Part shown: in pieces, positions 4,894 through 33,209 of the stretch | Position numbering within the stretch: position 1 is the stretch's first letter | Layout of the letters: each line of letters starts with the position of its first letter | Virus record (IMG/VR): IMGVR_UViG_3300028394_000037 | DNA: 64,000 nucleotides | Reading direction: 5' to 3' (one strand) | Source of the DNA: a virus | Notes under the pieces: model-generated | What the model was told of the DNA's origin: nothing | What the model saw: only the letters and a program-made list of their open reading frames with translations | Databases searched by the model: none | Made by a program: the position numbers and the translations under genes

Positions 4894-6036
4894 TTAGTAA
4901 ATAGTCGTAATTTCATCAATCTCATTATAAACAATCACATTACCATTAAGTTCTTGTCTCATAAATTTTCCTTGGCCTGGACCAAATAAGACGCCACCAA
5001 ATTCATCATATATTGGGTCATAAGGAGCAAAGACATTTGCGCTGAGTGTTGTTGTTCCGACTCCAACATTTTCTTTAAACTCCAATGCAGTATAAGTTCC
5101 CAATCCACTGACACCTGCTTTTGCATAAGTTTCGGTTAAATCTCCAACATTAGTTGCTGGAAATTGTCTATAAGCACCTAAACCCCAAATAATTCTTACT
5201 GCACCAACACCACCAACACTTCCATATCTACCTAGATCGCCTCCACCACCTCCTCCACCACCAAAGTTTCCACCACCAACTAATATACTTCCAGCACCTG
5301 CAGTAGTTGAACCATTTTGACCACCACTACCTCCAGTACCTGGATTATTACTACTACCACCATTTCCACTTGCGCCTTGGCCAAGTATCCCAACACCACC
5401 ACCACCAGTACTAGCAGATACATGACTTCCACCGCCACCTCCGCCGCCGCCAGATCCATTTGCTCCAGCACCACCAGATCCGCCAGCACCACCATTACCA
5501 CTATATCCACCGGCCCCTCCTCCTCCGCCGGATCCTGAAACACCGGTGCCTCCGGCACCACCATTACCACCAGTTCCAACAATCACTGTTCCACCAGTAC
5601 CACCATTAAAATTACCATTAACAGTAAGACTATTTCCCTTTTGCCCACCACCTGCTTCTACAAGAGAAATTGCTCCCCTCTTCACATAACTATTTCCACC
5701 ATTACTTGCCGTACTTGTAGGAACAATGCCCGGTTGTCCAGATGTGCCAACTCCTACCGTTAATGTTTCTCCAGGTGTAACTAAAATACTATTCACATAT
5801 GCTAGAGCACCACCGCCACCTCCACCTTTAGCAGGAACGCCATTATCTCCACCTCCTCCTCCACCACCACCAACAGTAACCACACTAATAGTATCAACAC
5901 CAGTAGGCACAGTCCAACTAAAAGTTCCTGGAGTTATGAAAGAACTTTGCCCCGCAGAAACTATATAACCAACTTCATTAAACTCACCAGTAACAATCAT
6001 TGACCCAAATTGGTCTAATCTTCCTACAACTGGCAT
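4894..6036 (-). CDS. Glycine-rich (polyglycine-II type) putative adhesin/fibre tip protein, 380 aa
   Basis: Domain runs 'WTVPTGVDTISVVTVGGGGGGG...GAVRIIW'. It directly follows the long fibre gene, as T-even gp38 follows gp37. Confidence 0.65.
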   Translation of the reverse strand: MPVVGRLDQFGSMIVTGEFNEVGYIVSAGQSSFITPGTFSWTVPTGVDTISVVTVGGGGGGGGDNGVPAKGGGGGGALAYVNSILVTPGETLTVGVGTSGQPGIVPTSTASNGGNSYVKRGAISLVEAGGGQKGNSLTVNGNFNGGTGGTVIVGTGGNGGAGGTGVSGSGGGGGAGGYSGNGGAGGSGGAGANGSGGGGGGGGSHVSASTGGGGVGILGQGASGNGGSSNNPGTGGSGGQNGSTTAGAGSILVGGGNFGGGGGGGGDLGRYGSVGGVGAVRIIWGLGAYRQFPATNVGDLTETYAKAGVSGLGTYTALEFKENVGVGTTTLSANVFAPYDPIYDEFGGVLFGPGQGKFMRQELNGNVIVYNEIDEITTIY

Positions 6037-6040
6037 AATA

Positions 6041-9000
6041 TTATCCTGCTACGAAGTCCAAACTATTTGTAGTTGAGTTGTACTGTATATAGAAGTTGGT
6101 TGATCCTGCAGTTCCACCAAATCGCATTTTACCAGTTGATTGAACTCTAGCATCACCAGAAACATCTACTGCAAAGGAAGGTGCCGTAACCGCAACACCA
6201 ACATTAGAAGACACATAAGCACCACCAGTAACTTGAAGTGGTTGTGATGTAGTTCCTGTAGAAGTTCCACCACCAATCAAAGTTGTAGATTGAAGTGTTG
6301 TTATACCTGATACATTTAACTGCTGTGAAGTTAGATTAGTGGTACTTGTAACTCCTAAAGTACTGATACCTGATACATTTAACTGCTGTGAAGTTAGATT
6401 AGTGGTACTTGTAACTCCTAAAGTACTGATACCTGATACATTTAACTGCTGTGAAGTTAGATTAGTGGTACTTGTAACTCCTAAAGTACTGATACCTGAT
6501 ACATTTAAAGTTTGTGATGTTAAGTTGGTTGTACTTGTAACACCAAGAGTTGTTATACCCGATACATTTAACTGTTGTGAAGTTAGATTAGTAGTACTGG
6601 TAACACCAAGAGTTGTTATACCAGAAACATTAAGTTGTTGTGATGTTAGGTTGGTTGTTGAAGTAACACCTAATGTTGAGACGCCAGTAACATTAAGTTG
6701 TCCTAATGTACCAACAGAAGTAAGTGATGAGTTTACAACACCACTTCCTAATGTATTATTGGTAATGACTGAAGTACCATTAATCTTATAATCATTTCCT
6801 GTGGTTACATTAATACCGCCAGAAGTAGTGACACCTGTGAAGCTTGCCGTAGTACCAAATAAAGATGCCGTATGAGTTGTTATACCAGCAAATGTAGAGA
6901 TTCCAGAAACATAAGCACTTGATGCAGTAATGATTCCGAGAGTTGTTATACCTGATACATTTAACTGTTGTGAAGTTAAGTTTCCAGTGAAGTATCCACT
7001 ACCATCAACCCAAAGTTTTGATGTTGGATTTGCAGTCCCCAATCCAATATTAAAATTACTATTACCAGTAATCCAAGAATTAGAACCAGAACCAATGTTT
7101 AATTGATCAGAACCATTGATTAATGGTAATTGAACACTATAACCAATGGCAACATTTCTATCACCATCAATTTGAGTACATGCCGCATTAGAACCTAAGA
7201 AAGTATTATTACATCCATTACTCATATTGTATCCAGTATTATTGCCGAAGAAACTATTATTTTGTCCAGAAAAACTATAATATCCTGCACAATTACCAAA
7301 GAAGTTATTATTAGATCCACTGTCGTTAAGAAGTCCAGAATATTGACCAAAGAAATTATTACAACCTCCAGAGGTGTTAGAAAATCCAGAATATTGACCA
7401 AAGAAATTATTATAATTTCCACAAGTGTTTAAATATCCCGCACTATTACCTAAGAAGTTATTATGATTTCCAATGGTATTTGAACATCCTGCACCACGAC
7501 CAAAGAAGTTATTACAAGATCCAGTGGTGTTACATTTTCCTGCTTCAGAACCAGCAAAGAAGTTATGAGTACCAGAAGTAATAGAACGTCCAGTATTAGT
7601 ATCACCAATTCTTATGTTATTATTAGTGAATATTACTGTTCCACCAATATTAACAGTACTTGATAATGTACTAATACCAGAAATACTTAAGGAAGTACCT
7701 ACTAAATTAGTACCACTAATACTTCCACCAACAAATTCTCCATACTGACTACTAAAGATTCTATTGGCAGTTAAGATTCCAGTGAAGTATCCACTACCAT
7801 CAACCCAAAGTTTAGATGTTGGATTTGTAGTTCCAATACCAACAGAACCGCCAATATAAACACTAGAGTTAATACCAGAAACCTGAAGAACTTGTCCTGC
7901 AGTTCCTGTAGAAGTTCCACCACCAATCAAAGTTGTAGATTGAAGTGTTGTTATACCTGATACATTAAGTTGTTGTGAAGTTAGATTAGTGGTACTTGTA
8001 ACTCCAAGAGTTGTTATACCCGATACATTTAATTGTTGTGAAGTTAGATTAGTGGTACTAGTAACACCTAAAGTACTGATACCCGATACATTTAACTGTT
8101 GTGAAGTTAGATTAGTGGTACTTGTAACTCCAAGAGTTGTTATACCCGATACATTTAATTGTTGTGAAGTTAGATTAGTTGTTGAAGTAACACCTAATGT
8201 AGTAATACCTGATACATTAAGTTGTTGTGATGTTAAGTTGGTTGCTGATGTAATTCCTAAAGTACTGATACCAGAAATATAAGCACTACCTTGAACAGTT
8301 AAGGTTGATGTTGGATTTGTGGTTCCAATACCAACGGAACCATTAAAGTAACCACCACTATTAACTTGAAGTCTTTGTGATGCAGTTCCTGTTGATGTTG
8401 CTGAACCAATTAATACTGGCCCATTGGCGAATGTTGAGATTCCAGTAACGCTGAGTGCAGTACCTACTAAGTTAGTACCAGTGATGCTACCAACAAAATA
8501 TCCATCACCATTGACCCAAAGTTTTGATGTTGGATTTGTGGTTCCAATTCCAAGATTACCAGAAGAGTCAAATCTACCAGATTCTAATGGAGTAATAGAA
8601 TTACCAGTAGAACCAATTGCTGCACGATAAAATACGTGTCCTCCAGATAAGAATTGAACCCAAGAAGCAACATCAGTTGTATCATAAGTCCAGGCATTTA
8701 ATGCACTTGGTTTTGCATTATATCCAACAACACCATAAGAAGTACCAGCAGTACCAAAGATGATACTACCAACACGACCTGCTTTGTTCAATGATGCAGC
8801 ACCAGCATCTATTGCATAAGATGGAGTAAAGTTTCCAATTGCAAGACTTCCAGAATTTAATATAAAATTATTAGAAGTATCAAAGTTTGCGTGTGATAAA
8901 TCTGTTTGGGCAAATGTTATACTTTTTCCACTTGGTCTATTGATAATTAAATTATTAGTTGATGTGGATAAAATATTATAATCAGCAGTTGCTGTGCTCC

Positions 9001-20279: not shown

Positions 20280-22205
20280 TTAAAATGTTATAGAACCGGA
20301 TGCATCCCAAATATATGTTCTATATCCACCAGAAGGAGCTCCTGATGATGTAGTTCCTGTGGTTGAACTTGCCACTGAATATGCATCAGGATAACGAATT
20401 ACAATTCTACCAGATCCACCATTACCACCACCTCCACGATTTCCACAACCACCTCCACCACCGCCACTATTAGTGCCGCCAGAATCTCCACCTCTACTAT
20501 TATGTCCACCGCTGCCACCACCACCTGGTCCACCACTTCCAGGTCCATTAGAATCTGATCCACCGCCACCACCACCAGAATAAGTATTTCCAGTCATAGG
20601 ATCATATATTCCAGATCCTCCTGGTCCACCATTTGAAGATCCACCTTGAGCACCAGGATGAGGAACTGATCCGCCAGCACCACCGGCACCACCTCCGCCA
20701 CCACCGGATCCTTGATATGGATCATAATGCCCGTGATTTCCGGAACCACCAGGATTTCCTTGAGGTCCACCAGTTCCACCCTTAAAGTAATCATCGTTTG
20801 GAGAATCTCCATCTCCACCACCACCAGATGCACTACCAGGAGTACCAGGAACAGGACCACCACGAGCTCCACCCCACGCAGTTATTCCACCAAAACCAGA
20901 TTGTGATCCACTTCCACTTCCGCCTCCACCACCTCCAATAGTGATTGTATAAGGAGATCCAGGAGTAATTGGAGTTGTAGATGCCAGATATCCACCGGCA
21001 CCTCCACCTCCACCGCCACGTTCGTGTCCTTCTGATCCACCACCACCGCCTCCAACAACAAGATATTGAACACTAGTGGGTTTTGGTAACGTTACATTAA
21101 TAGAATTTGAGGTTACTGTTACAGAACCTGCAGTGTTTGTTGAAGTTGCATTCACTGTAATATTTTTACTCAAATCACCAGAAACAATAGTATAAGTACT
21201 TCCACCAGTTTGAACAGCAGATGCTCCACTATACCACACCCAACTTACTGATGAAGTTGGATTTGAAGAAAAAGTTGCCGTCGTATATGTGAGTGTAGAT
21301 CCAACAGTAGAGGATCCAGAAATAGTACCATCGGTTAATGAAGTATTGTATATGCTATTTGAACTAGAATTATCTAATGTAATATTTCCTGGTCCAGTAA
21401 ATTTATAATACTTGTACCCACTAACTGTACTAAAATTATAACTACCACTTACCGAAGATGCATCAGAATATGTGGAAGAGTACCTAATAATTACAACTCC
21501 TGGTCCTCCGCTTCCTCCGATACCATAGGGATCATTTCTTTGTCCTCCAGCGGCAGGTCCTCCATTTCCAGAATTTGATGGTTGTGGAGTTCCTGGAGAT
21601 GAATAATTCCAACCACTACCACTTCCACCTACTGCATATGTAACACCATCAAACCAAGTTCTTCCTACCCCACCAGAACCAGCAGCACCGTCAGTAACTC
21701 CATTGCCACCAACACCACCGGCACCGCCACCGCCACCACCGGTTCCTCTATCATTATCTGGAGTTCCTGTAGGTGGTCCATAATTACCACCTGGATAACC
21801 TTGTTGATTTGGTCCAGGGTATCCATAACCAGATCCACCGGCACCACCACCAGACCCACCAGGAGATCCAGGGGCACCTCCACCATAAGCTGTTATTGGA
21901 GTTATACTAGGACTAACTAATGTTGAAGGTTGTCCAGCACTACCACTAGGTCCACCATTACCAACTGAAATTGTAAAAACTGTTCCATTTAATATTTCAG
22001 TGGATGCAGATACATATCCTCCAGCACCTGCACCGTTTTGTCCATTCCAGCTAGGTCCTGGTCCAGGAGGTCCATTAGAACCACCACCTCCACCACCCAA
22101 CACCAAATAATCAATTAGTATCTTTGATGTAGTAGTAGATTTCTTACCAAATCCAAAACCACCACTAATAGCACCAATACCAAGTCTTGATAATAATGGA
22201 GACAT
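20280..22205 (-). CDS. Double glycine-rich-domain putative adhesin with central Ig-like domain, 641 aa
   Basis: Two YLV.GGGGGG...G.(V/I).IRY domains flank an Ig-like segment. N-terminus is MSPLLSRL...GFGFG. Confidence 0.7.
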   Translation of the reverse strand: MSPLLSRLGIGAISGGFGFGKKSTTTSKILIDYLVLGGGGGGSNGPPGPGPSWNGQNGAGAGGYVSASTEILNGTVFTISVGNGGPSGSAGQPSTLVSPSITPITAYGGGAPGSPGGSGGGAGGSGYGYPGPNQQGYPGGNYGPPTGTPDNDRGTGGGGGGAGGVGGNGVTDGAAGSGGVGRTWFDGVTYAVGGSGSGWNYSSPGTPQPSNSGNGGPAAGGQRNDPYGIGGSGGPGVVIIRYSSTYSDASSVSGSYNFSTVSGYKYYKFTGPGNITLDNSSSNSIYNTSLTDGTISGSSTVGSTLTYTTATFSSNPTSSVSWVWYSGASAVQTGGSTYTIVSGDLSKNITVNATSTNTAGSVTVTSNSINVTLPKPTSVQYLVVGGGGGGSEGHERGGGGGGAGGYLASTTPITPGSPYTITIGGGGGGSGSGSQSGFGGITAWGGARGGPVPGTPGSASGGGGDGDSPNDDYFKGGTGGPQGNPGGSGNHGHYDPYQGSGGGGGGAGGAGGSVPHPGAQGGSSNGGPGGSGIYDPMTGNTYSGGGGGGSDSNGPGSGGPGGGGSGGHNSRGGDSGGTNSGGGGGGCGNRGGGGNGGSGRIVIRYPDAYSVASSTTGTTSSGAPSGGYRTYIWDASGSITF

Positions 22206-22207
22206 AA

Positions 22208-23158
22208 TTAGAAGAAACCTCCACTTGCTGTACCAAATACTTGATAGTTTGCTGTGGTACTTGCACTACCAACAGTATTGATACCAGTAAAACTAAAGAT
22301 TGTATGCCCGGTTGAAGTGGTCACACCAGAGATTGCAGCACTCAAAGAACCACCAGCCCAACGAATTGTCTTTGATACTCCATTTAATGTAACAGCAGTA
22401 CAAGTTCTTGCAGTTCCCGTAGAGTTTGTAATCACTGCAAATGTAATAGCATAATCATCAAAATCAGAACTTGTTGGAATACCAGTTACCGCAAGTGTTA
22501 CATCGGCAGTTGGATTTGTTGTATATCCTACATTTGCACTTGAAGAATTATATGCAAGACTTACAGTATTTCCACTTGTTCTATAAACTTTCTCTGCACC
22601 TGTGACTGCTCTTGTTTCATTTGGTGACCAAGCAATATTAGTTTCAAGTGCTTTCTTGGTATCATTATAAGTTAATGTCTTATTGGTTGTACCGTAGATT
22701 GTGATTCCTGAACCATCAGCAAGAGCATCAGATGGGGTTGTTGTAGAACCAATACCAATATTCTTATCTGCGACTTCTAATGACGTTGTATTGATAATGG
22801 TTTGAGTACCATTAACTGTCAAATTAGTGAATGTTGCACCAGTACCAGTTATATTTCCTACAGTTATATTAGGACTTCCAGAAAGTCCATAAGCAGTTGC
22901 TGCTGCTGTTGCGGTGGATGCAGTACCAGAAAGATTGTATGCAGTAGTTGCAAAAGATACCGATGAAATACCAGTTAGATTTGCACCAGAACCATAATAA
23001 GAAGTTGCACTTACAATACCAGCAACCTGCAAAGTTGTTGTTGGATTTGTTGTGCCAATACCAACTCGTTGATTTGCATTGTCAAGTTGAAGAACAGCAC
23101 CAGCAGTACCGATGCCGGAACTAAAATCTGCAATTCTTGATGCGTTGGTAATAGCCAT
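22208..23158 (-). CDS. Short fibre/adaptor protein, 316 aa
   Basis: Paralogue of the ORFs at 26142 and 30581 (shared FTNLTVNGTQTIINTTSLEVADKNIGIGSTT core). Ends SGGFF. Confidence 0.7.
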   Translation of the reverse strand: MAITNASRIADFSSGIGTAGAVLQLDNANQRVGIGTTNPTTTLQVAGIVSATSYYGSGANLTGISSVSFATTAYNLSGTASTATAAATAYGLSGSPNITVGNITGTGATFTNLTVNGTQTIINTTSLEVADKNIGIGSTTTPSDALADGSGITIYGTTNKTLTYNDTKKALETNIAWSPNETRAVTGAEKVYRTSGNTVSLAYNSSSANVGYTTNPTADVTLAVTGIPTSSDFDDYAITFAVITNSTGTARTCTAVTLNGVSKTIRWAGGSLSAAISGVTTSTGHTIFSFTGINTVGSASTTANYQVFGTASGGFF

Positions 23159-23205
23159 TATCGTTTTTTAGATATTTATGTTAATCAAAGTGTCTTAATA
23201 AAATT

Positions 23206-23559
23206 TTATTGCAAAGGAATTTGTGGTAAAACAACTTCATTCGGTGATGAAAATGTTTTGGTAATATCTCTTAATTCTTGTCTATACTGTTTCCATTCAT
23301 CAGAAATAGGATTTTTATTTTCCATTGATGATACAACAATCCAATCAGATGAAGTCAATAACTGATTTCTAACAAGTCTTACAGTTTCCCAATCTGGAAA
23401 TAATATATTTTCTTGTCTGATAAAAGTTTCATTTACATATTCATCTCCTATAAATGCTCCTTCAGCGGAGACCCATCCATTTTGCAATGCTTCTTCTTCC
23501 GAACAAATTACAATATTTTTTACAATTTTATCTTCAATAATTGCGTATTTAAATGACAT
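23206..23559 (-). CDS. Tail fibre assembly chaperone-like protein, 117 aa
   Basis: WETVRLVRNQLLTSSDW...EWKQYRQELRDIT...P is the typical phage tail assembly chaperone motif. Confidence 0.75.
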   Translation of the reverse strand: MSFKYAIIEDKIVKNIVICSEEEALQNGWVSAEGAFIGDEYVNETFIRQENILFPDWETVRLVRNQLLTSSDWIVVSSMENKNPISDEWKQYRQELRDITKTFSSPNEVVLPQIPLQ

Positions 23560-23571
23560 TAGTTTTACCTC

Positions 23572-24573
23572 TTAGTATTCAATAATGATTGCACCTTGTT
23601 GACCATTACTCCCTGTAGGTGCGCCACCTAAACCATACCCAGTTGCTTGTGGAGCATCTCCAGAAACATAAGCCTGAACTGTAGATACTGCTGCAAATCC
23701 ACCATAAAGATTTATTTGCCCACCTGAACCTTGTGATATCCCTAATGGAGAACTATTTCCACGAACTCCTCCTGTCCCTGTTATGGTTACTGTATTATAT
23801 GTGAAGGTTGTATCTCCACCAACAGCTCCATAATAACCAGAGTCTCCCAACCCTCCAGCTCCAATAGCATAACTTGCAGTTGTTCCCGAACCTACTATAT
23901 AATACCTAATAGATGTTCCACCACTTCCTCCTCTAACATAAGTTCCACCAGCATTAAAAGAACCACCAGCACCACCACCAGTAGCATAAACTTTTATTAG
24001 ACTAACTCCAGATGGAACAGTCCAAGAAGTTCCGGATGTAAGTGTAACATATGTGGAAAATCCAATGCTTCCTGATGTTAGAGATAAACTACTCGCACTA
24101 ACAGTTCCTACAGTAATATTAGGACTTCCAGAAAGTCCATAAGCAGTTGCTGCTGCTGTTGCGGTTGATGCAATTCCAATTAAATTATATGCAGTAGTTG
24201 CAAAAGCAACTGAAGTTGCTGCGCCAGCAATTGTGCTTACACCGAGAACATTTAAGTTGCCAGTGATAGTTACATTTCCATTTACGGTTCCACCAGAATT
24301 TACATTCAGAGCATCAGCAACACGAAAGTCATCAAATACCTGAAATTCTATCGGGTCTCCTAATATTGCTGGTGAAAGTAGAGTAACTGTGGAACCATCA
24401 CGAGCAGTATAATCAAGAGAATCTACCAGTCTTGAACCATTTCTAAATACAGAAATTTGATTGATTCTATAACCACCAGTTACCGTGAAAAGTGTTTGTC
24501 CGGCAGTTGCAGTAACACTTATAGTTTTTGATGAAATATTGCCCGTGAGTGATACGGGATTACCTATTGCCAT
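23572..24573 (-). CDS. Fibre protein with fused C-terminal Gly-rich domain, 333 aa
   Basis: N-terminal domain resembles the 30581 ORF (VFRNGSRL...DY). Contains the shared adaptor stalk, then WTVPSGV...GGG...GAIIIEY. Confidence 0.7.
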   Translation of the reverse strand: MAIGNPVSLTGNISSKTISVTATAGQTLFTVTGGYRINQISVFRNGSRLVDSLDYTARDGSTVTLLSPAILGDPIEFQVFDDFRVADALNVNSGGTVNGNVTITGNLNVLGVSTIAGAATSVAFATTAYNLIGIASTATAAATAYGLSGSPNITVGTVSASSLSLTSGSIGFSTYVTLTSGTSWTVPSGVSLIKVYATGGGAGGSFNAGGTYVRGGSGGTSIRYYIVGSGTTASYAIGAGGLGDSGYYGAVGGDTTFTYNTVTITGTGGVRGNSSPLGISQGSGGQINLYGGFAAVSTVQAYVSGDAPQATGYGLGGAPTGSNGQQGAIIIEY

Positions 24574-25236: not shown

Positions 25237-26145
25237 TTATGGAATAGTAAAGGTCTGATCTGAACCGGTGTAACTAAATCTATACTTAACGTCATCTACA
25301 ATAATAATACAATATCCTGGATTGCCATTATAATCTCCTACCCCATAAACATTACCACCACTAATCCAATCGGGATCTGATTTTGCTTGTGGATGTTGTT
25401 CAGATCCCCATGCCGTATTATTGTTATAAACTGTTTCAATTTTTGGATGAGAAACATATGAAGATCCACCGCCACCTGCACCAGAAGCACAAGCACCACA
25501 GTCTCCATTACCTCCACCTCCACCATAATATCCACCACCCCCGCCAGAACCTTTACAACTCATACCATACCCACCATTCATAAAATACCCATCCTGACCA
25601 GCAGATCCACCACCACCAAATCCACCAGTTCCGGCACCACCTCCATTGCTTTGTGATCCACCACCAGAACCTCCGCCTCCAGGAGCTCCTTGAGGACCGC
25701 CGCCACCCCCAGCAGAAGTTTCTGTACTATCTGTTGACCCTCCAGATCCTCCACCAGCAGCAAGTATCATAGATGATTGATCTACTGAAGGAGTATTTAA
25801 ACCAATATATGATCCACCACCTCCAGAACCTCCACCATCACCACCTCTGGGAGCACCACCACCATACGTTCTACTATCACCATTAGCTGATCCACCTTGT
25901 CCAACCATAATACGAAGAACATTACCAGTTACTAATTCACCATCACGAAATTTTACATAGACAAATCCGCCACCGGCACCATTATAACCACCATTAAATC
26001 CACCACAACCTTGAGATGCTCCTCCACCAGCACCCCATAACTTTATCTCTACTGTTTTAAAACGCTTAACACCTCTACGTCTTCCAAATCCAAAACCACT
26101 TCCGGCAGAACCAGAACCAAACATTCTTGATAAAATAGGACTCAT
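25237..26145 (-). CDS. Glycine-rich putative adhesin, 302 aa
   Basis: MSPILSRM...GFGFG start, then KLWGAGGG...GGGSSY domain. Overlaps the upstream adaptor gene by 4 nt. Confidence 0.7.
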   Translation of the reverse strand: MSPILSRMFGSGSAGSGFGFGRRRGVKRFKTVEIKLWGAGGGASQGCGGFNGGYNGAGGGFVYVKFRDGELVTGNVLRIMVGQGGSANGDSRTYGGGAPRGGDGGGSGGGGSYIGLNTPSVDQSSMILAAGGGSGGSTDSTETSAGGGGGPQGAPGGGGSGGGSQSNGGGAGTGGFGGGGSAGQDGYFMNGGYGMSCKGSGGGGGYYGGGGGNGDCGACASGAGGGGSSYVSHPKIETVYNNNTAWGSEQHPQAKSDPDWISGGNVYGVGDYNGNPGYCIIIVDDVKYRFSYTGSDQTFTIP

Positions 26146-27161
26146 CTAAATCCTCCATTCACAACACCAAGTACATAATAGTTTGCAGTTGTACTTGCAC
26201 TTCCTATGGTATTGATGCCAGTAAAGTTATAGATATCCATTCCACTTGTGGTAGTCACACCAGAAGTAGCAGCACTCAAAGAACCACCAGCCCAACGAAT
26301 AGTTACACTATAACCATTTAATGTAACAGCAGTACAACTTCTTGCGGTTCCAGTTTGAATTACCATTACTCCAAATGAGATTGAATGATTATCAAAATCA
26401 GAACTTGTTGGAATATTTGTGACTGCTAAAGTAATATTACCAGATGGGTTAGTGCATAATCCAATATTTGATGATGATCCATTATATACAAGACTTGCAG
26501 TATTTCCATCTATTCTTGTAAGTTTTTCTGCAACACTTATAAATCTTGTTTCTGTTGTTGCCCAAGCAACATTAGTTTCAAGTGCTTTCTTGGTATTATT
26601 ATAAGTTAGTGTCTTATTAGTTGTTCCATAAATCGTGATACCTGAACCATCAGCAAGAGTATCAGATGGTGATGTGGTTGAACCAATACCTATATTCTTA
26701 TCTGCGACTTCCAATGAAGTTGTATTGATAATGGTTTGAGTACCATTCACTGTTAAGTTTGTAAATGTTGCAGCAGAACCAGTTACATTTCCTACAGTAA
26801 TATCCGGACTTCCTGTTAGACCATAAGCAGTTCCTGCTGCTGTTGCGGTTGATGCGGTTCCCGTTAAACTGCCAGTAACAGTTCCTACAGTTATATTAGG
26901 ACTTCCCGTTAATCCATAAGCAGTTCCTGCTGCTGTTGCTGTGGATGCAATTCCAATTAAATTATATGCAGTAGTTGCAAAAGATACTGATGAAATACCA
27001 GTTAGATTTGCACCAGAACCATAATAAGAAGTTGCACTTACAACACCAACAACATTCAACTTAGATGTTGGGATTGTACTTCCAATGCCTACGTTATTAT
27101 TGGAATCTACTGTAAGTGCATTTGTATTTGATAATCGTGACAGTTCGCGGGCGCGTGTCAT
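26142..27161 (-). CDS. Short fibre/adaptor protein, 339 aa
   Basis: MTRARELS start, shared core, ends NGGFR. Confidence 0.7.
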   Translation of the reverse strand: MTRARELSRLSNTNALTVDSNNNVGIGSTIPTSKLNVVGVVSATSYYGSGANLTGISSVSFATTAYNLIGIASTATAAGTAYGLTGSPNITVGTVTGSLTGTASTATAAGTAYGLTGSPDITVGNVTGSAATFTNLTVNGTQTIINTTSLEVADKNIGIGSTTSPSDTLADGSGITIYGTTNKTLTYNNTKKALETNVAWATTETRFISVAEKLTRIDGNTASLVYNGSSSNIGLCTNPSGNITLAVTNIPTSSDFDNHSISFGVMVIQTGTARSCTAVTLNGYSVTIRWAGGSLSAATSGVTTTSGMDIYNFTGINTIGSASTTANYYVLGVVNGGFR

Positions 27162-27367: not shown

Positions 27368-28078
27368 TTATCGTGCGGCATCAAATGCACAGTGAGCACG
27401 TTCTCCATCGGCAAGAACATAATGAAAGAAGATTTGATGATAATAATCTTGTACTGGTTTTCTAAAAAGTCTCTTCTTGACTCCACCGGGCATCGGTTCT
27501 CTCCAGTGTGGACGTTCACATCCCTTATAAAGCAATCCATCACCGGGTTCTAGATACAAAGAACGTTCTTCACCGGTAGATGTAATCACTTCCTTCTTCT
27601 TATCCAAATAAGTATCAGGAGTTTTGATGATAAATGGCCACCACTCTTTTAAAGATGTACTGATATGAACACTCACCGAAATCTCACAGGCATCTCTGTC
27701 TGCGTGTTTCTTGAGTTCTTGTCCTGAAAAATAAAACCTATCATAATAATAAGTATTATAAAGTTTCCGTCCAATTACCTCTTCCAGTTTGAGACGAATA
27801 CCGGTATGTATCTTCTTATACTGTGGATGAGAATATCGTGCCAGAGAACCATTCACTTGTGCTTCTTCTGGATTGTGATGAAATCTATCCACAGAACCAA
27901 AATAATTGATTTGCCCCCTTTCTTCTGGAACCGGATGATAAAGTTCCTTGGAATCCCATAGATTCTTGAGAACAAGATATCCGTTCTTTTCAAAACTCTC
28001 ATTACGTGTCCATGCAGTTCCCGTATTTCTACGTTCCTGCATCATCAATTCTAGTTCGTTATATTCACATTGTGCCAT
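27368..28078 (-). CDS. Putative 2OG-Fe(II) oxygenase, about 236 aa
   Basis: LKKHADRDACEISVS...GDGLLYKG...HWR gives an HxD...H pattern. Start moved to ATG 28078 to avoid overlap with the upstream gene. Confidence 0.75.
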   Translation of the reverse strand: MAQCEYNELELMMQERRNTGTAWTRNESFEKNGYLVLKNLWDSKELYHPVPEERGQINYFGSVDRFHHNPEEAQVNGSLARYSHPQYKKIHTGIRLKLEEVIGRKLYNTYYYDRFYFSGQELKKHADRDACEISVSVHISTSLKEWWPFIIKTPDTYLDKKKEVITSTGEERSLYLEPGDGLLYKGCERPHWREPMPGGVKKRLFRKPVQDYYHQIFFHYVLADGERAHCAFDAAR

Positions 28079-28079
28079 A

Positions 28080-28700
28080 TCAGACCCACCTCTTACCAAC
28101 CGTCCACCCGACAATGCTCTTACGAACACCCTTTGTGACTTTCAGAACACGATGTTGAGTACGTGAATCAAAGAGTACAATCGTTCCACGCTTTCTTGGA
28201 GCAAAATAACTATTGCCACCTTCATCAATGAACTGAACGTTGCCACCTTCATAATCATCAGGACCAGAGAGTTGTAGAGAGAAGGAAAGTTTCCTTACAA
28301 GTTCAATATTCTCATTCACAAAATCATTTGCAAGTCCTTCTGCACGATTACCAACAGATTGAGGTTTATATTGAGTTGCAAGTCCTGCATCATTGTGCCA
28401 ACCATAAAACTCACCTTCACCATAACGGGTATATTGAAGACTTTCACCATCAATATTCCTCAAATCATACAAGAAGTTCTCACGATTTGCACGTTGAACA
28501 TAGTGCCACAGAAAACCAGCAACCCAGTGAGTTGTAGGAATCCAAGTGTTTTGTGAGTTTCTCTTTTCCTTATTCAGGGCATCTCCATGAAGTCTAGAGT
28601 CTGCCATCTGTGAGTCAAAATTTTCTGTTAAATCTTTTTCAATAATATTTACAATATCTTCTGGAAGATTTGTATAATACCAAACTGACTGTAGAGCCAT
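28080..28700 (-). CDS. 2OG-Fe(II) oxygenase, prolyl-4-hydroxylase/PKHD-like, 206 aa
   Basis: QYTRY...YGWHND...RKLSFSLQL...YEGG...FDS...HRV...RKSIVGW. Confidence 0.88.
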   Translation of the reverse strand: MALQSVWYYTNLPEDIVNIIEKDLTENFDSQMADSRLHGDALNKEKRNSQNTWIPTTHWVAGFLWHYVQRANRENFLYDLRNIDGESLQYTRYGEGEFYGWHNDAGLATQYKPQSVGNRAEGLANDFVNENIELVRKLSFSLQLSGPDDYEGGNVQFIDEGGNSYFAPRKRGTIVLFDSRTQHRVLKVTKGVRKSIVGWTVGKRWV

Positions 28701-28723
28701 ATGATTATAATGTAGTCAAAGGT

Positions 28724-28752
28724 ATTTTATCAGATGTTGAGGAGAATGTCAA
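28724..28752 (-). promoter_or_regulatory. sigma70-type (early) promoter
   Basis: TTGACA-17 bp-TAAAAT with an extended -10 TG, upstream of the oxygenase ATG at 28700. Confidence 0.8.
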
Positions 28753-28766
28753 ATAAATTTTTTTAC

Positions 28767-29711
28767 TTATGTCAGATACCTAATTACAATAACTCCATCT
28801 TGCCCCATACCAGCACCTCCTCCTCCACAACTGGCACCACCACCACCAGATCCAGCAGTACTAGGTATTGTTGGATAAGTTGCAGGAGGAGCATCTACTG
28901 GTCTCGATGTTCCACTTCCTCCTCCAGATGTATTTAAATTTGTTCCTATAGGGTTAGTAAAACTTGATCCACCATTATTTCTAGTTCCACCTCCAGATGG
29001 GATACTTGTCATAACACCTGGTCCATTATATCCCCCTCCACCACCGCCAAATCCACCATTATCTCCCGTTTGTCCTGGACCATTTTGTCCAGATGTTGAA
29101 CCAGGTACATAGGAACCAGAACCACCTCTCGAACTACCACCTCCTGGAGATCCACCAGGAGCACCTCCACCTCCACCACCACCGCCGCCACCAGCTACAA
29201 TATAAAAAATAGACCCTGGACCAGGAGGTTGCGACACTCCAGTAAAACCACCGCCTGCGCCACCACCTCCAGAACTCCCATCAGGACCAGCAGCACCAGG
29301 ATCTCCTCCGCCGTTATTTCTAAACCCAGATCCACTATTATTTGGCCCGCTCCCGCCGTGGTTTGGACCTGCTTCTCCCCTACCACCAACATATACTGTA
29401 TAATTTCCAGGAGAGAAAGTAAAAGTTCCTTTTGATATTCCTCCAGAAGATCCTGATATTCCATCATCTGATGGGAAAAAATCTCCACCACAATCTCCAC
29501 CACCTCCACCTCCGCCACCACCTATCGCAACAATTTCAACATTATTTTGTCCTGCGGATACAGTAAAAGTTTCTGAACCTGGTGTTGTAAAAGTATGAAT
29601 TGTATACGAACCAGAAAAAGTTTTTGTGCCACCAGTCGCAGAAAAAGGAATAGGACCCTCACCAGCACTCCTACCAAACCCAAACTTCAACCCAGTAAAA
29701 AGAGGTGCCAT
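28767..29711 (-). CDS. Glycine/proline-rich putative adhesin, 314 aa
   Basis: MAPLFTGLKFGFGRSAGEG start, then VAIGGGGG...GVIVIRY domain. Confidence 0.7.
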   Translation of the reverse strand: MAPLFTGLKFGFGRSAGEGPIPFSATGGTKTFSGSYTIHTFTTPGSETFTVSAGQNNVEIVAIGGGGGGGGGDCGGDFFPSDDGISGSSGGISKGTFTFSPGNYTVYVGGRGEAGPNHGGSGPNNSGSGFRNNGGGDPGAAGPDGSSGGGGAGGGFTGVSQPPGPGSIFYIVAGGGGGGGGGGAPGGSPGGGSSRGGSGSYVPGSTSGQNGPGQTGDNGGFGGGGGGYNGPGVMTSIPSGGGTRNNGGSSFTNPIGTNLNTSGGGSGTSRPVDAPPATYPTIPSTAGSGGGGASCGGGGAGMGQDGVIVIRYLT

Positions 29712-29723
29712 AATATCAAACTC
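29655..29723. repeat. 69-bp direct repeat, copy 1
   Basis: Identical to 30520-30588 except position 29704/30569. Confidence 0.95.
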
Positions 29724-30576
29724 TTACTATTATTGCAACAAAAACTCTTTGAGGAGATCCTGTACCACCACCACCGCCATCACGAGCACCAATCGGAGCA
29801 GGCCAGTCGTTCCATCCGGTTCCACCTCCACCTCCACCGCCGCCACCACCAGCACCTACACCAGATCCACCTACACCTCCAGAACCACCATTTGCATAAG
29901 AACCAGGATCTTTATAAAGATCCCCACCAATATTACCTGGATTGGCATTGACTGATGCAGGTGGAAGTGGTGTTGTTATGTCACTTGGATATGGGGATGA
30001 ATTTAATGAAATTACTAATCCACCGGCACCACCACCACCAACGCCACCAGCATATCCGTTTGATGCACCTCTTGATGATTGAGTCGGTCCTCCAGCTCCA
30101 GCACCAAAACTGTATACAGAAGTAAATGAATTTAGTGCAGTTATTGCATCACTAGTATTGGAATATGGAGTGCCATTAGAATTACTCATCGCCAAAGATC
30201 TACCATCTCCAGTGGTCCCTGAAGTCTGAAATTGAACAGCAGAAGAATAAAAAGGATCAGAATAATTTGCCTTTACATTTAAAGTTCCGCCAGTTGCCAA
30301 ACTATTAAAAGGAACATTAATATATGCAGCAACATTAGATTGACCACCGGCACCACCAGAGGTAGCACCAGAGGCAGGAGCGGCAGCATTACCTCCAGGA
30401 GATCCATTAGAACCGGTTCCGGCAACAATAACAACTTTTGCGCTATTTGCCTCTGATTGAGTTAATGTGACACTTAAATCACTTGAACTAAAATAATATT
30501 GTTGTGATGGTGTAGCAGCACCCTCACCAGCACTCCTACCAAACCCAAACTTCAACCCAGTAAAAAGAAGTGCCAT
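29716..30576 (-). CDS. Glycine-rich putative adhesin, 286 aa
   Basis: MALLFTGLKFGFGRSAGEG start followed by a Gly-rich body unlike that of the 314-aa neighbour. Confidence 0.7.
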   Translation of the reverse strand: MALLFTGLKFGFGRSAGEGAATPSQQYYFSSSDLSVTLTQSEANSAKVVIVAGTGSNGSPGGNAAAPASGATSGGAGGQSNVAAYINVPFNSLATGGTLNVKANYSDPFYSSAVQFQTSGTTGDGRSLAMSNSNGTPYSNTSDAITALNSFTSVYSFGAGAGGPTQSSRGASNGYAGGVGGGGAGGLVISLNSSPYPSDITTPLPPASVNANPGNIGGDLYKDPGSYANGGSGGVGGSGVGAGGGGGGGGGGTGWNDWPAPIGARDGGGGGTGSPQRVFVAIIVRV

Positions 30577-30588
30577 AATATCAAACTC
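30520..30588. repeat. 69-bp direct repeat, copy 2
   Basis: Lies 865 bp from copy 1. Confidence 0.95.
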
Positions 30589-31837
30589 CTACAGTACCTT
30601 GACGGAACCCACCATTCTTGGTGACATAAACCTGATAACTACTTGCAACAGTATTTGTACCACCAGTATAATGTACGAAGAATGATACAAAATCTATATC
30701 ACTTGCAGTCGTAGAAAGTGTCACAGTGGTTGCACTACCTACCAGTGCTCTGGTTGAGATACCAGCAACTGTTGCACCATCCTCAAATCCAATCACAAAA
30801 CAGTTAGTACCAATACCAGTTGCTGCTGTTGTGTTTGCAGTTCCTGTTGCGTTCTGTGTAAAGATAACAGTAATCGTTGTACCATTAGAAACACCAGTAT
30901 CAGCAGGCATATTCTTAAAGGATACAATACCTACACTACCATTTGATAAACTATGAGTATAAGTCGTTGCATTTCTTACATCTAACTCAAGAACAACTCT
31001 ACCACCACCTAAGTCATAAGTAGATCCGGTAGATACTGTTTCTATAACACCCTTAAACTTACTTGGTTGGTTATACTCAAAGCATCCAGTATCTCTTTCC
31101 CAGGTGATTGTTTTATTTGTAGTGCCATAAATCGTGATTCCTGCACCATCAGCAGTTACATCAGATGGTGATGTGGTTGAACCAATACCTATATTCTTAT
31201 CTGCTACTTCCAGACTTGTGGTATTGATAATGGTTTGAGTACCGTTAACCGTAAGATTAGTAAAGGTTGCAGCAGAACCAGTTACATTTCCTACAGTAAT
31301 ATTTGGTGTGCCAGAAAGTCCATAAGCAGTTCCTGCTGCTGTTGCAGTGGATGCAGTTCCCGTTAAACTACCAGTAACAGTTCCTACAGTTATATTAGGA
31401 CTTCCCGTTAATCCATAAGCAGTTCCTGCTGCTGTTGCTGTGGATGCAATTCCAATTAAATTATATGCAGTAGTTGCAAAAGATACAGAAGAACCAGCAG
31501 ATAATGTAGTGGTTCCATTGACCGTAAGATTTCCAGAAATAGTGAAATTTCCAACAGCACTGGGAGCAGCAAGATTATATGCCTTATATGCAACTAATTC
31601 AAGAATATCTCCGCTTTGTGCTGCTGATGATAATCCTACTGTTGAAGTATCGGTTGCACTGAAATCTTGCCCTTCAATTTGACGAGCACCATTCAGGTAA
31701 ACGTCAAGATATCCAATCTGATATCCTGCGGCAAAAGTAAAGTTAGTTTGTACTCCTGTTGGAGAAAATACTTGTTTTGCAACAACAATTGGAGATGTAT
31801 CAGGACTATATCCAATATAACCATACTTTAATGACAT
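30581..31837 (-). CDS. Fibre/adaptor protein, 418 aa
   Basis: N-terminal DVYLNGARQ...DF domain, shared core, ends NGGFRQGTVGV. Confidence 0.7.
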   Translation of the reverse strand: MSLKYGYIGYSPDTSPIVVAKQVFSPTGVQTNFTFAAGYQIGYLDVYLNGARQIEGQDFSATDTSTVGLSSAAQSGDILELVAYKAYNLAAPSAVGNFTISGNLTVNGTTTLSAGSSVSFATTAYNLIGIASTATAAGTAYGLTGSPNITVGTVTGSLTGTASTATAAGTAYGLSGTPNITVGNVTGSAATFTNLTVNGTQTIINTTSLEVADKNIGIGSTTSPSDVTADGAGITIYGTTNKTITWERDTGCFEYNQPSKFKGVIETVSTGSTYDLGGGRVVLELDVRNATTYTHSLSNGSVGIVSFKNMPADTGVSNGTTITVIFTQNATGTANTTAATGIGTNCFVIGFEDGATVAGISTRALVGSATTVTLSTTASDIDFVSFFVHYTGGTNTVASSYQVYVTKNGGFRQGTVGV

Positions 31838-33201: not shown

Positions 33202-33209
33202 TATTTATA
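33202..33209 (-). promoter_or_regulatory. T4-type late promoter TATAAATA
   Basis: Exact consensus upstream of 33170. Confidence 0.8.

Follow-up and report, generated by a model that had tools for sequence, protein, structure and literature searches.

What does it mean when the start of a gene stands twice in a phage genome, so placed that the two copies bracket exactly one further gene? The question is raised by a 69-nucleotide (nt) direct repeat in IMG/VR record IMGVR_UViG_3300028394_000037, of which a stretch of 64,000 nt (the window) was analysed; all coordinates refer to the window unless a contig is named, and the genes of the tip region all lie on the minus strand. Three open reading frames (ORFs) follow each other there with 4-nt spacers: a tail-fibre gene of 418 amino acids (aa), called the adaptor, and two fibre tip genes, a putative one of 286 aa and one of 314 aa. 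The repeat is probably the duplicated 'joint' of a plug-in tail-fibre system, left by the insertion of a foreign tip. By joint is meant the last bases of the adaptor gene with the ribosome-binding site, the 4-nt spacer, the start codon and the approximately 19 codons of an FTG..FGFG peptide. The source record, a metagenome-assembled viral contig of 107.8 kb judged about 51% complete, encodes a baseplate hub 41-44% identical to the hubs of Synechococcus phages S-SM2 and Bellamy, and the runs holding this stretch are freshwater metagenomes. The element hosting the repeat is a freshwater T4-like (Kyanoviridae-like) myovirus, a cyanophage.

Anatomy of the repeat

A repeat search returned a 76-nt direct repeat (29652-29727 versus 30517-30592) of 96% identity and 865 nt spacing, with mismatches at 29654, 29704 and 29724 upon base-by-base comparison. 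Its 69-nt core, 29655-29723 versus 30520-30588, contains a single mismatch (29704 G / 30569 A), by which Pro at codon 3 becomes Leu; exact runs reach 49 nt at most. In gene sense, a copy reads GTA (A/G)GA GTT TGA, the last three codons and the stop of the upstream gene, followed by the spacer TATT and by 19 codons, ATG GCA C(C/T)T CTT TTT ACT GGG TTG AAG TTT GGG TTT GGT AGG AGT GCT GGT GAG GGT, encoding the peptide MA(P/L)LFTGLKFGFGRSAGEG. A Shine-Dalgarno-like GGAG/AGAG is contained in the upstream gene's last codons within each copy. A chance origin is excluded, the expectation of 68 matches out of 69 in 64 kb being estimated at less than 1e-30.

Outside the block the two copies are unrelated: the flanks are 24-30% identical over 33-44 nt on each side, and BLASTP of the 286-aa against the 314-aa protein aligns residues 1-19 and nothing else. 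Loss of one repeat unit would take out 865 nt, which is exactly the 286-aa gene. These results agree with the preliminary description of this DNA, which had reported a 69-bp repeat with one mismatch spanning the end of the upstream gene, the 4-nt spacer and 19 codons, dissimilar gene bodies after it, and a geometry in which recombination between the copies would remove 865 bp and cleanly delete the 286-aa gene.

The core mismatch is polymorphic, variant P0001 carrying Pro at codon 3 of the 286-aa gene; occasional exchange between copies would fit this, as would plain mutation. No stable structure was predicted for the joint RNA (z = +1.65), as expected for a translation start, and a reading of the block as an RNA element was therefore dropped.

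Tip bodies, peptides and joints in related contigs

The body of the 286-aa gene was found at 96.5% nt identity, over exactly window positions 29724-30549, in contig L062 (Joint Genome Institute, JGI), where it stands behind an adaptor and a peptide of a second type, class II. In L062 it forms the first domain of a longer tip that runs on past ...QRVFVAI for at least 100 residues. These further residues match residues 279-367 of a 641-aa tip encoded elsewhere in the window (a segment of 92.8% identity), and the 316-aa adaptor and class II joint of L062 are 93.4% identical to those of the window. The L062 unit is thus the counterpart of the window's 316-aa/641-aa unit, with a 286-type domain replacing the first glycine-rich domain. 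The 286 body has diverged less from L062 (96.5%) than the flanks have (93%; Fisher p = 0.002). Set against L062 1002-2150, window 20280-22205 (minus strand) presents a domain-level swap inside one gene.

The edges of this homology coincide with those of the repeat. The left edge, GGTGAGGGT/GCTGCTACACC (the slash marks the boundary), falls exactly at the repeat end. At the right edge L062 reads ..AATAGTAA/GAGTTTGA and the adaptor ..ACTGTAG/GAGTTTGA (also given as ACTGTAG/GAGTTTGATATT). Identity to the adaptor 3' end starts where the L062 homology stops, and the A/G mismatch at the repeat edge is thus a crossover located in a GTA microhomology. The sequencing runs were searched as Logan contigs with k=31, which break inside the 49-nt exact run and cannot resolve links across the block. 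A 2008-nt contig of run X9 (record 25) has the same 29724-30549 boundaries with 1157 nt of unlike sequence beyond them, so a second data set also contains the L062-type arrangement. The 286 body has remoter homologues too (48-56% identity), in which the N-termini differ, as do the tails after the conserved QRVFVAI.

The 314 body is mobile as well. It is 89% identical to a 316-aa gene of contig L004, versus 72-76% for the backbone (p = 1e-21). The L004 version wears the class II peptide MAPLLSRLGLGRSGFGFGK, which is identical to the peptide of the neighbouring 339-aa tip and matches the adjoining class II adaptor. Since the 314 body carries a class I peptide in the window and a class II peptide in L004, the same body wears the peptide that fits the local adaptor. 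L004 also has a duplicated joint of its own, a 116-nt exact direct repeat (5944-6059 / 7736-7851) at the starts of the unrelated 316-aa and 339-aa tip genes, in which 57 nt of the adaptor 3' end are kept as a non-coding relic upstream of the 316-aa gene. A third one, 63 nt long and 90% identical, links two tips starting MPLSSG in contig L021 (8148-8208 / 8902-8964). Three tandem tip genes behind one adaptor were observed in contig L014 (6155-8649) and in L021.

Relatives of the 418-aa protein are encoded by 54 viral contigs. About 20 of these share one arrangement, with an adaptor ending ...ATKNGGFRQGxVGV and stop, 4 nt, one gene starting MAP[IL]FTG..FGFG, and then a pair of oxygenase genes. 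The bodies behind this class I joint differ widely, with 9-34% Gly and lengths of 232-626 aa. In the closest relative (L009/L010), adaptor and joint are 89% nt identical to the window up to position 30523, after which a single 315-aa tip follows; L008 has a low-glycine tip of 332 aa behind the same joint. The class II joint consists of an adaptor ending ...[SN]GG[FY][FWR] and stop, followed by M[AS]P[IL]LSR...GFGFG. The check for different genes behind the same 69-bp block in close relatives, proposed in the preliminary description, thus gave positive cases in L009/L010 and L008. The view of the block as the joint of a cassette system was also borne out: other genes stand behind the block in relatives, and the same bodies stand behind other joints in L062 and L004. 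Two tips with one putative docking peptide beside a single matching adaptor occur both in the window and in L004.

Clustering of the adaptor C-terminal domains (C-domains), after trimming of the last 14 residues, gave families A and B. The peptide class follows the C-domain family in 22 of the 23 distinct adaptor/tip pairs: FTG/FSG peptides accompany all 16 family A adaptors and LSR peptides all six of family B. The remaining pair combines an LSR peptide with an adaptor that clusters with neither family.

The cultured Synechococcus phage Bellamy (L001 5800-7845 and 2158-5277) has the same adaptor/tip pairs, gp53/gp54 and gp50/gp51, all four annotated as hypothetical; its tips carry an extra prefix of 11-12 residues (MGIFNEFFKKEK) ahead of the PVFTGLKFGFG peptide. 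In the literature searched, this adaptor/tip joint was not described for cyanomyoviruses. Among 50,697 phage records, neither the locus nor the 314-aa protein had a match by megablast and tblastn, and scans of viral contigs were equally negative for the 286-aa protein and for pieces of 35 nt from the block and 26 nt from the 286 body.

Matches of the 418-aa protein include tail-fibre genes of Synechococcus, Pelagibacter and Roseobacter phages and, in PHROG, phrog_36132 (1e-80) and phrog_18345, tail fiber (8e-15). The structure model of this protein is weak (mean predicted local distance difference test score, pLDDT, of 57), and the best Foldseek rows were N-terminal parts of tailspikes with E values of at least 0.03, none of them significant. 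For the 314-aa protein, the score against PF21722 Gly_rich_2 was 13.7 bits, below the cut-off of 24.3 bits; the family is matched by nine of 12 aligned relatives (best 1.6e-20), in whose alignment the GGGG runs are conserved and the loops variable. The AlphaFold model of the 314-aa protein is weak overall (mean pLDDT 54), with a confident beta-sandwich at residues 20-110 and a glycine-rich part of pLDDT < 50; in this monomer model residues 4-17, the N-terminal peptide, are disordered. Its best Foldseek rows, all weak, were the fibre of cyanophage Pam3, the tail tip of Bxb1 and the ALK/LTK glycine-rich domain.

Two tips of paralogous units in the window reached accepted family scores: the 302-aa protein 32.8 bits against PF12810 ALK_LTK_GRD (cut-off 24.5) and the 641-aa protein 3e-26 against PF21722. 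The latter holds two glycine-rich domains connected by an immunoglobulin-like linker. Judged from its domain order, the 333-aa protein is a natural fusion which would place glycine-rich tips at fibre ends. 'Fibre tip' is thus a well-supported label for the proteins of 314, 302 and 641 aa, and a putative one, assigned by position, for that of 286 aa. A role of the 286-aa protein as a second adaptor for the 314-aa tip was considered because it ends in VRV, compared to VGV in the adaptor, and was rejected: these codons are the scar of the crossover, and the protein is without an adaptor C-domain.

Probable origin of the duplicated joint

The breakpoints are best explained by a single patch insertion between the adaptor and the resident 314-aa tip of an ancestor with the order adaptor-joint-314. 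Synthesis or strand exchange would have departed from the recipient after the peptide codons, at the boundary of peptide and body, and copied a foreign domain; the return crossover of this copy-choice event would have taken place at the GTA microhomology in the adaptor 3' end, 69 nt upstream of the point of departure. The joint would thereby have been copied twice, leaving both genes with a ribosome-binding site, a start codon and a peptide. Only products keeping these elements and the frame of both genes would survive, hence breakpoints at functional boundaries. The proposal that tips are gained through the 69-bp homology was not supported: the 286 body was joined at the GTA microhomology and at the peptide/body boundary instead, which makes the homology the product of the insertion and not its substrate.

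Both tips would be transcribed late, together with the adaptor. Most likely their common peptide would attach both to the C-terminal domain of the single class I adaptor, resulting in virions with two receptor specificities. That the peptide docks the tip onto this domain is probable from the pairing of classes, the exchange of peptides on one body between window and L004, the disorder of the peptide, the fibre-tip fusion and two analogous systems. The terms 'adhesin' and 'socket', used in the preliminary description, would likewise follow from gene order, fold hints and co-variation.

Several points weigh against this explanation. The link from adaptor to tip across the 49-nt exact run is ambiguous in k=31 contigs. 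The 286-type domain matched no Pfam or PHROG family, so that its label as a receptor-binding tip is taken from position and composition. Physical linkage of adjacent DNA could alone account for the pairing of peptide and adaptor, and the docking model draws on weak monomer models (mean pLDDT 54 and 57). The transfer may have run from an L062-like to a window-like phage or in reverse, and gene conversion between pre-existing tandem tips would yield the same repeat.

Such concerted evolution, in which the tips already stood in tandem and their 5' ends were later homogenised to match one adaptor with no insertion-with-duplication, is nevertheless improbable. Intragenomic conversion does seem active in this genome, with blocks of 125-300 nt at 81-89% identity among the adaptor paralogs, and the two window copies are 97% identical to each other versus 88% to the nearest ortholog, L009; the P/L polymorphism at codon 3 fits as well. 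Yet the L062 homology of the 286 body ends at the very base where the block has its 5' edge, and the 286-aa protein has lost its native tail at that same edge. Syntenic relatives hold one tip in this slot, and the tract copied in L004 includes a useless relic of the adaptor 3' end.

A further alternative, which takes up the host-range switch proposed in the preliminary description, gives the repeat a function: recombination between the 69-nt copies would regularly excise the 286-aa gene as an 865-bp circle, or amplify it, so that every burst contains subpopulations hedging their bets on host range. T4-type phages reportedly recombine efficiently on roughly 50 bp of homology, about the length that T4 requires (Singer et al. 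1982), a point in favour of this scheme. The copies are direct, in frame and exact over 49 nt, adaptor-joint-314 would be intact after a deletion, L004 and L021 have duplicated joints as well, and the polymorphic mismatch (Pro at codon 3 in P0001) fits exchange between copies. Despite this, the single insertion event fully explains the breakpoints, and the exact 286-aa protein on eight contigs indicates an arrangement stable enough to dominate several samples. Contig depths in runs X1 and X5, a weak measure, are alike for pieces of the 286-aa, 314-aa and adaptor genes. At the repeat, none of four runs had a deletion joint listed; their k=31 contigs cannot resolve a 49-nt exact repeat. The 107.8-kb record, 51% complete, contains no resolvase, integrase or reverse transcriptase (no match to PF00239, PF00589 or PF00078); the lack of a RecA/UvsX match in the same half-genome is uninformative. 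No feature examined indicates a programmed switch, which we regard as unlikely, and there is an equally slight chance that UvsX-type recombination between the copies yields 286-less and 286-amplified genomes in every burst at an ecologically relevant frequency. If it did, the duplicated joints of the window, L004 and L021 would serve as reversible devices for hedging bets on host range, independent of a recombinase and based on a universal FGFG docking peptide. On the preferred reading, in which the repeat is a remnant of insertion, it is also a passive substrate for homologous recombination, through which the 286-aa gene could be lost or amplified at low frequency.

An apparent joint in run X9 that skips 865 nt (28763 to 29629) was rejected as a deletion: it lies off the repeat, one of its sides is anchored by only 24 nt, and the length of the contig is that expected of a diverged but collinear 314-like gene. 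Run X4 has 314-like and adaptor-like contigs of a related strain (28783-29466 and 30717-31120; approximately 91-92% identity) with a depth of 25-36 and the only 286 contig a depth of 8. This might reflect a relative without the 286-aa gene, a claim that contig depth cannot carry.

The repeat is no artefact of a single contig. The exact 286-aa protein, with both ends inside repeat copies, was called on eight JGI contigs of up to 172 kb, and Logan unitigs of runs X1, X4 and X5, from three studies, join the 3' end of the 286-aa gene to the copy-1 block, so the repeat junctions are backed by independent assemblies. It is consequently very unlikely that the assembler fused in tandem two strains differing in the gene behind the block. 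In favour of a chimera, the window is metagenome-assembled, strain variants of the 314-aa and adaptor genes coexist in the same samples, and k=31 contigs leave the path through the 49-nt run ambiguous. Against it, a two-allele bubble cannot make the junction 286 stop codon - TATT - ATG GCA CCT found in those unitigs, the complete 286 ORF is present on eight contigs, and the same kind of duplication occurs in unrelated contigs.

Known fibre systems and features of the locus

The arrangement is similar to that of gp37/gp38 in T-even phages (T2, T6, S16; Tetart 1998; Trojet 2011, PMC3157838), where the distal fibre gene is followed immediately by a small gene for a glycine-rich adhesin. Here, the tip gene stands directly behind the fibre gene as well, with a 4-nt gap, on the same strand and in one late unit, and about 20 related contigs keep this order. 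In gp37/gp38, C-terminal subtypes of the former and N-terminal subtypes of the latter are paired as lock and key, with exchanges near conserved motifs (PMC3157838). Both systems thus have few N-terminal attachment subtypes, each paired with one subtype of fibre C-terminus (22 of 23 pairs here, to be read with the linkage of adjacent DNA in mind), and hypervariable bodies exchanged by recombination at or near conserved motifs. Unlike in gp38, where attachment is by a folded domain, the attachment element is a peptide of approximately 19-25 residues; there are several adaptor/tip units per genome, with tandem tips behind one adaptor; and no gp38 family was present among the Pfam or PHROG matches. 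As to the polyglycine-II sandwich of gp38, with its conserved glycine-rich motifs and hypervariable loops, the signs here are the conserved GGGG runs and variable loops of the 314-type alignment, next to a glycine-rich part of low pLDDT and weak Foldseek matches.

Short conserved N-terminal peptides attach secondary receptor-binding proteins (RBPs) in K1-5/SP6 and Klebsiella phages (PMC6872550), and the interaction of peptide and carrier in such docking-peptide systems has since been validated experimentally (PMC13352976). In these anchor-branch systems (K1-5/K1E/SP6; the Klebsiella KP32/KP34 groups), as in the window, different RBP bodies share a short conserved N-terminal peptide and are swapped horizontally behind it. 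The peptide plugs the RBP into its carrier there, and two RBPs per virion widen the host range, as may be the case for the window tips. The anchor-branch RBPs differ from the glycine-rich fibre tips of this T4-like myovirus in being tailspike depolymerases, mostly of podoviruses, that are carried by a T4 gp10-like branching domain. The Foldseek search of the adaptor model (pLDDT 57) gave no significant sign of a gp10-like domain, the match to the N-terminal part of CBA120 TSP4 having E = 0.04.

The Pam3 fibre gp24 consists of a docking domain, a TNF-like sandwich and a glycine-rich receptor-binding tip resembling S16 gp38 (PMC9608196). As far as the models go, the 314-aa tip would share with gp24 (PDB 7YPX) and with the ALK/LTK domain a beta-sandwich and a glycine-rich lattice domain at the distal fibre end. 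Among known structures, the 314-aa model matches the Pam3 fibre best, though weakly (E = 1e-3, template modelling score 0.31-0.38, low-confidence model). Gp24 is a single fibre protein that docks by its own N-terminal helical bundle, in contrast to the tips here, which are separate genes with a short peptide. Finally, the host-range duplications of T4 gp37 (Tetart 1996, as cited in PMC3157838) are alike in involving short repeats at a fibre locus of a T4-type phage with no dedicated recombinase. They differ in that a small domain within one gene is duplicated; in the window, the two copies of a gene start enclose the entire body of a foreign gene. The locus works like gp37/gp38 and the docking-peptide systems and is a sequence member of neither.

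The principle of a conserved attachment part with a swappable body is already established in coliphages and Klebsiella phages. The locus is a clean, well-resolved case of fibre-tip shuffling that will not surprise a phage specialist, with no demonstrated switch. It provides base-resolution breakpoints for a natural transfer of a tail-fibre tip between two fibre slots of related cyanophages, and a natural swap experiment in which one tip body wears the N-terminal peptide matching the adjacent adaptor. Together, these suggest a simple, testable docking code in T4-like cyanophages, in which a given adaptor C-domain family is paired with either an FTG..FGFG or an LSR..GFGFG peptide. Nearly all host-recognition proteins of these phages carry the annotation 'hypothetical'. 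As cultured phage Bellamy has the same pairs, the docking idea is open to bench test.

The features of the locus are collected in Table 1.

Table 1. Coordinates of the adaptor, tip, joint and promoter features in the window.
Feature	Coordinates	Strand	Characteristics
418-aa fibre ('adaptor') gene	30581..31837	-	tail-fibre-like N-domain, Ala/Thr/Gly repeat shaft, class I C-terminal beta domain ending ...TKNGGFRQGTVGV and stop
286-aa tip gene	29716..30576	-	class I peptide, orphan Gly-rich domain, 4-residue tail IVRV; tip label putative
286 body, presumed imported	29724..30549	-	96.5% identical to L062 1050-1875
314-aa tip gene	28767..29711	-	class I peptide, beta-sandwich, Gly_rich_2-family glycine-rich domain; end ...GVIVIRYLT
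314 body cassette	28760..29684	-	89% identical to L004 6043-6956
Joint block, upstream copy	30520..30588	-	adaptor end GA GTT TGA, TATT, ATG + 18 codons MALLFTGLKFGFGRSAGEG; extendable to 30517-30592
Joint block, downstream copy	29655..29723	-	286-gene end GA GTT TGA, TATT, ATG + 18 codons MAPLFTGLKFGFGRSAGEG; extendable to 29652-29727
339-aa class II adaptor paralog	26142..27161	-	end ...VVNGGFR and stop
302-aa tip gene	25237..26145	-	class II peptide MSPILSR...GFGFGR; Pfam ALK_LTK_GRD 9e-8, above curated cut-off
333-aa protein gene	23572..24573	-	fibre N-domain and shaft fused straight to Gly_rich_2 tip; without adaptor C-domain and docking peptide
316-aa class II adaptor gene	22208..23158	-	end ...TASGGFF and stop; ortholog of L062 adaptor (87% aa)
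641-aa two-domain tip gene	20280..22205	-	class II peptide; residues 279-367 match C-terminal extension of L062 tip
T4-type late-promoter-like TATAAATA	33202..33209	-	heads unit 257 aa > 176 aa > 418 aa > 286 aa > 314 aa
Sigma-70-like promoter	28724..28752	-	near-consensus TTGACA-17-TAAAAT, just past 314 stop

The late unit is compact, with intergenic gaps of 29, -1, 4 and 4 nt between its five genes. At the sigma-70-like promoter the fibre/tip unit gives way to a pair of 2-oxoglutarate (2OG)-Fe(II) oxygenase genes.

Among the three adaptor paralogs, the conserved shaft blocks are located at 22671-22970, 26605-26904 and 31104-31403, and their DNA identity suggests that fibre shafts undergo intragenomic gene conversion. 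A stretch of 413 nt (23159-23571), flanked by the 333-aa gene and the gene of the 316-aa adaptor, is without a listed ORF in a region that is otherwise densely packed. The two oxygenase genes (27368-28752, minus strand) come directly after the tip genes, an order that most related contigs share. With its listed GTG start, the second oxygenase ORF overlaps the first ORF by 50 nt, and the true start is probably located farther downstream.

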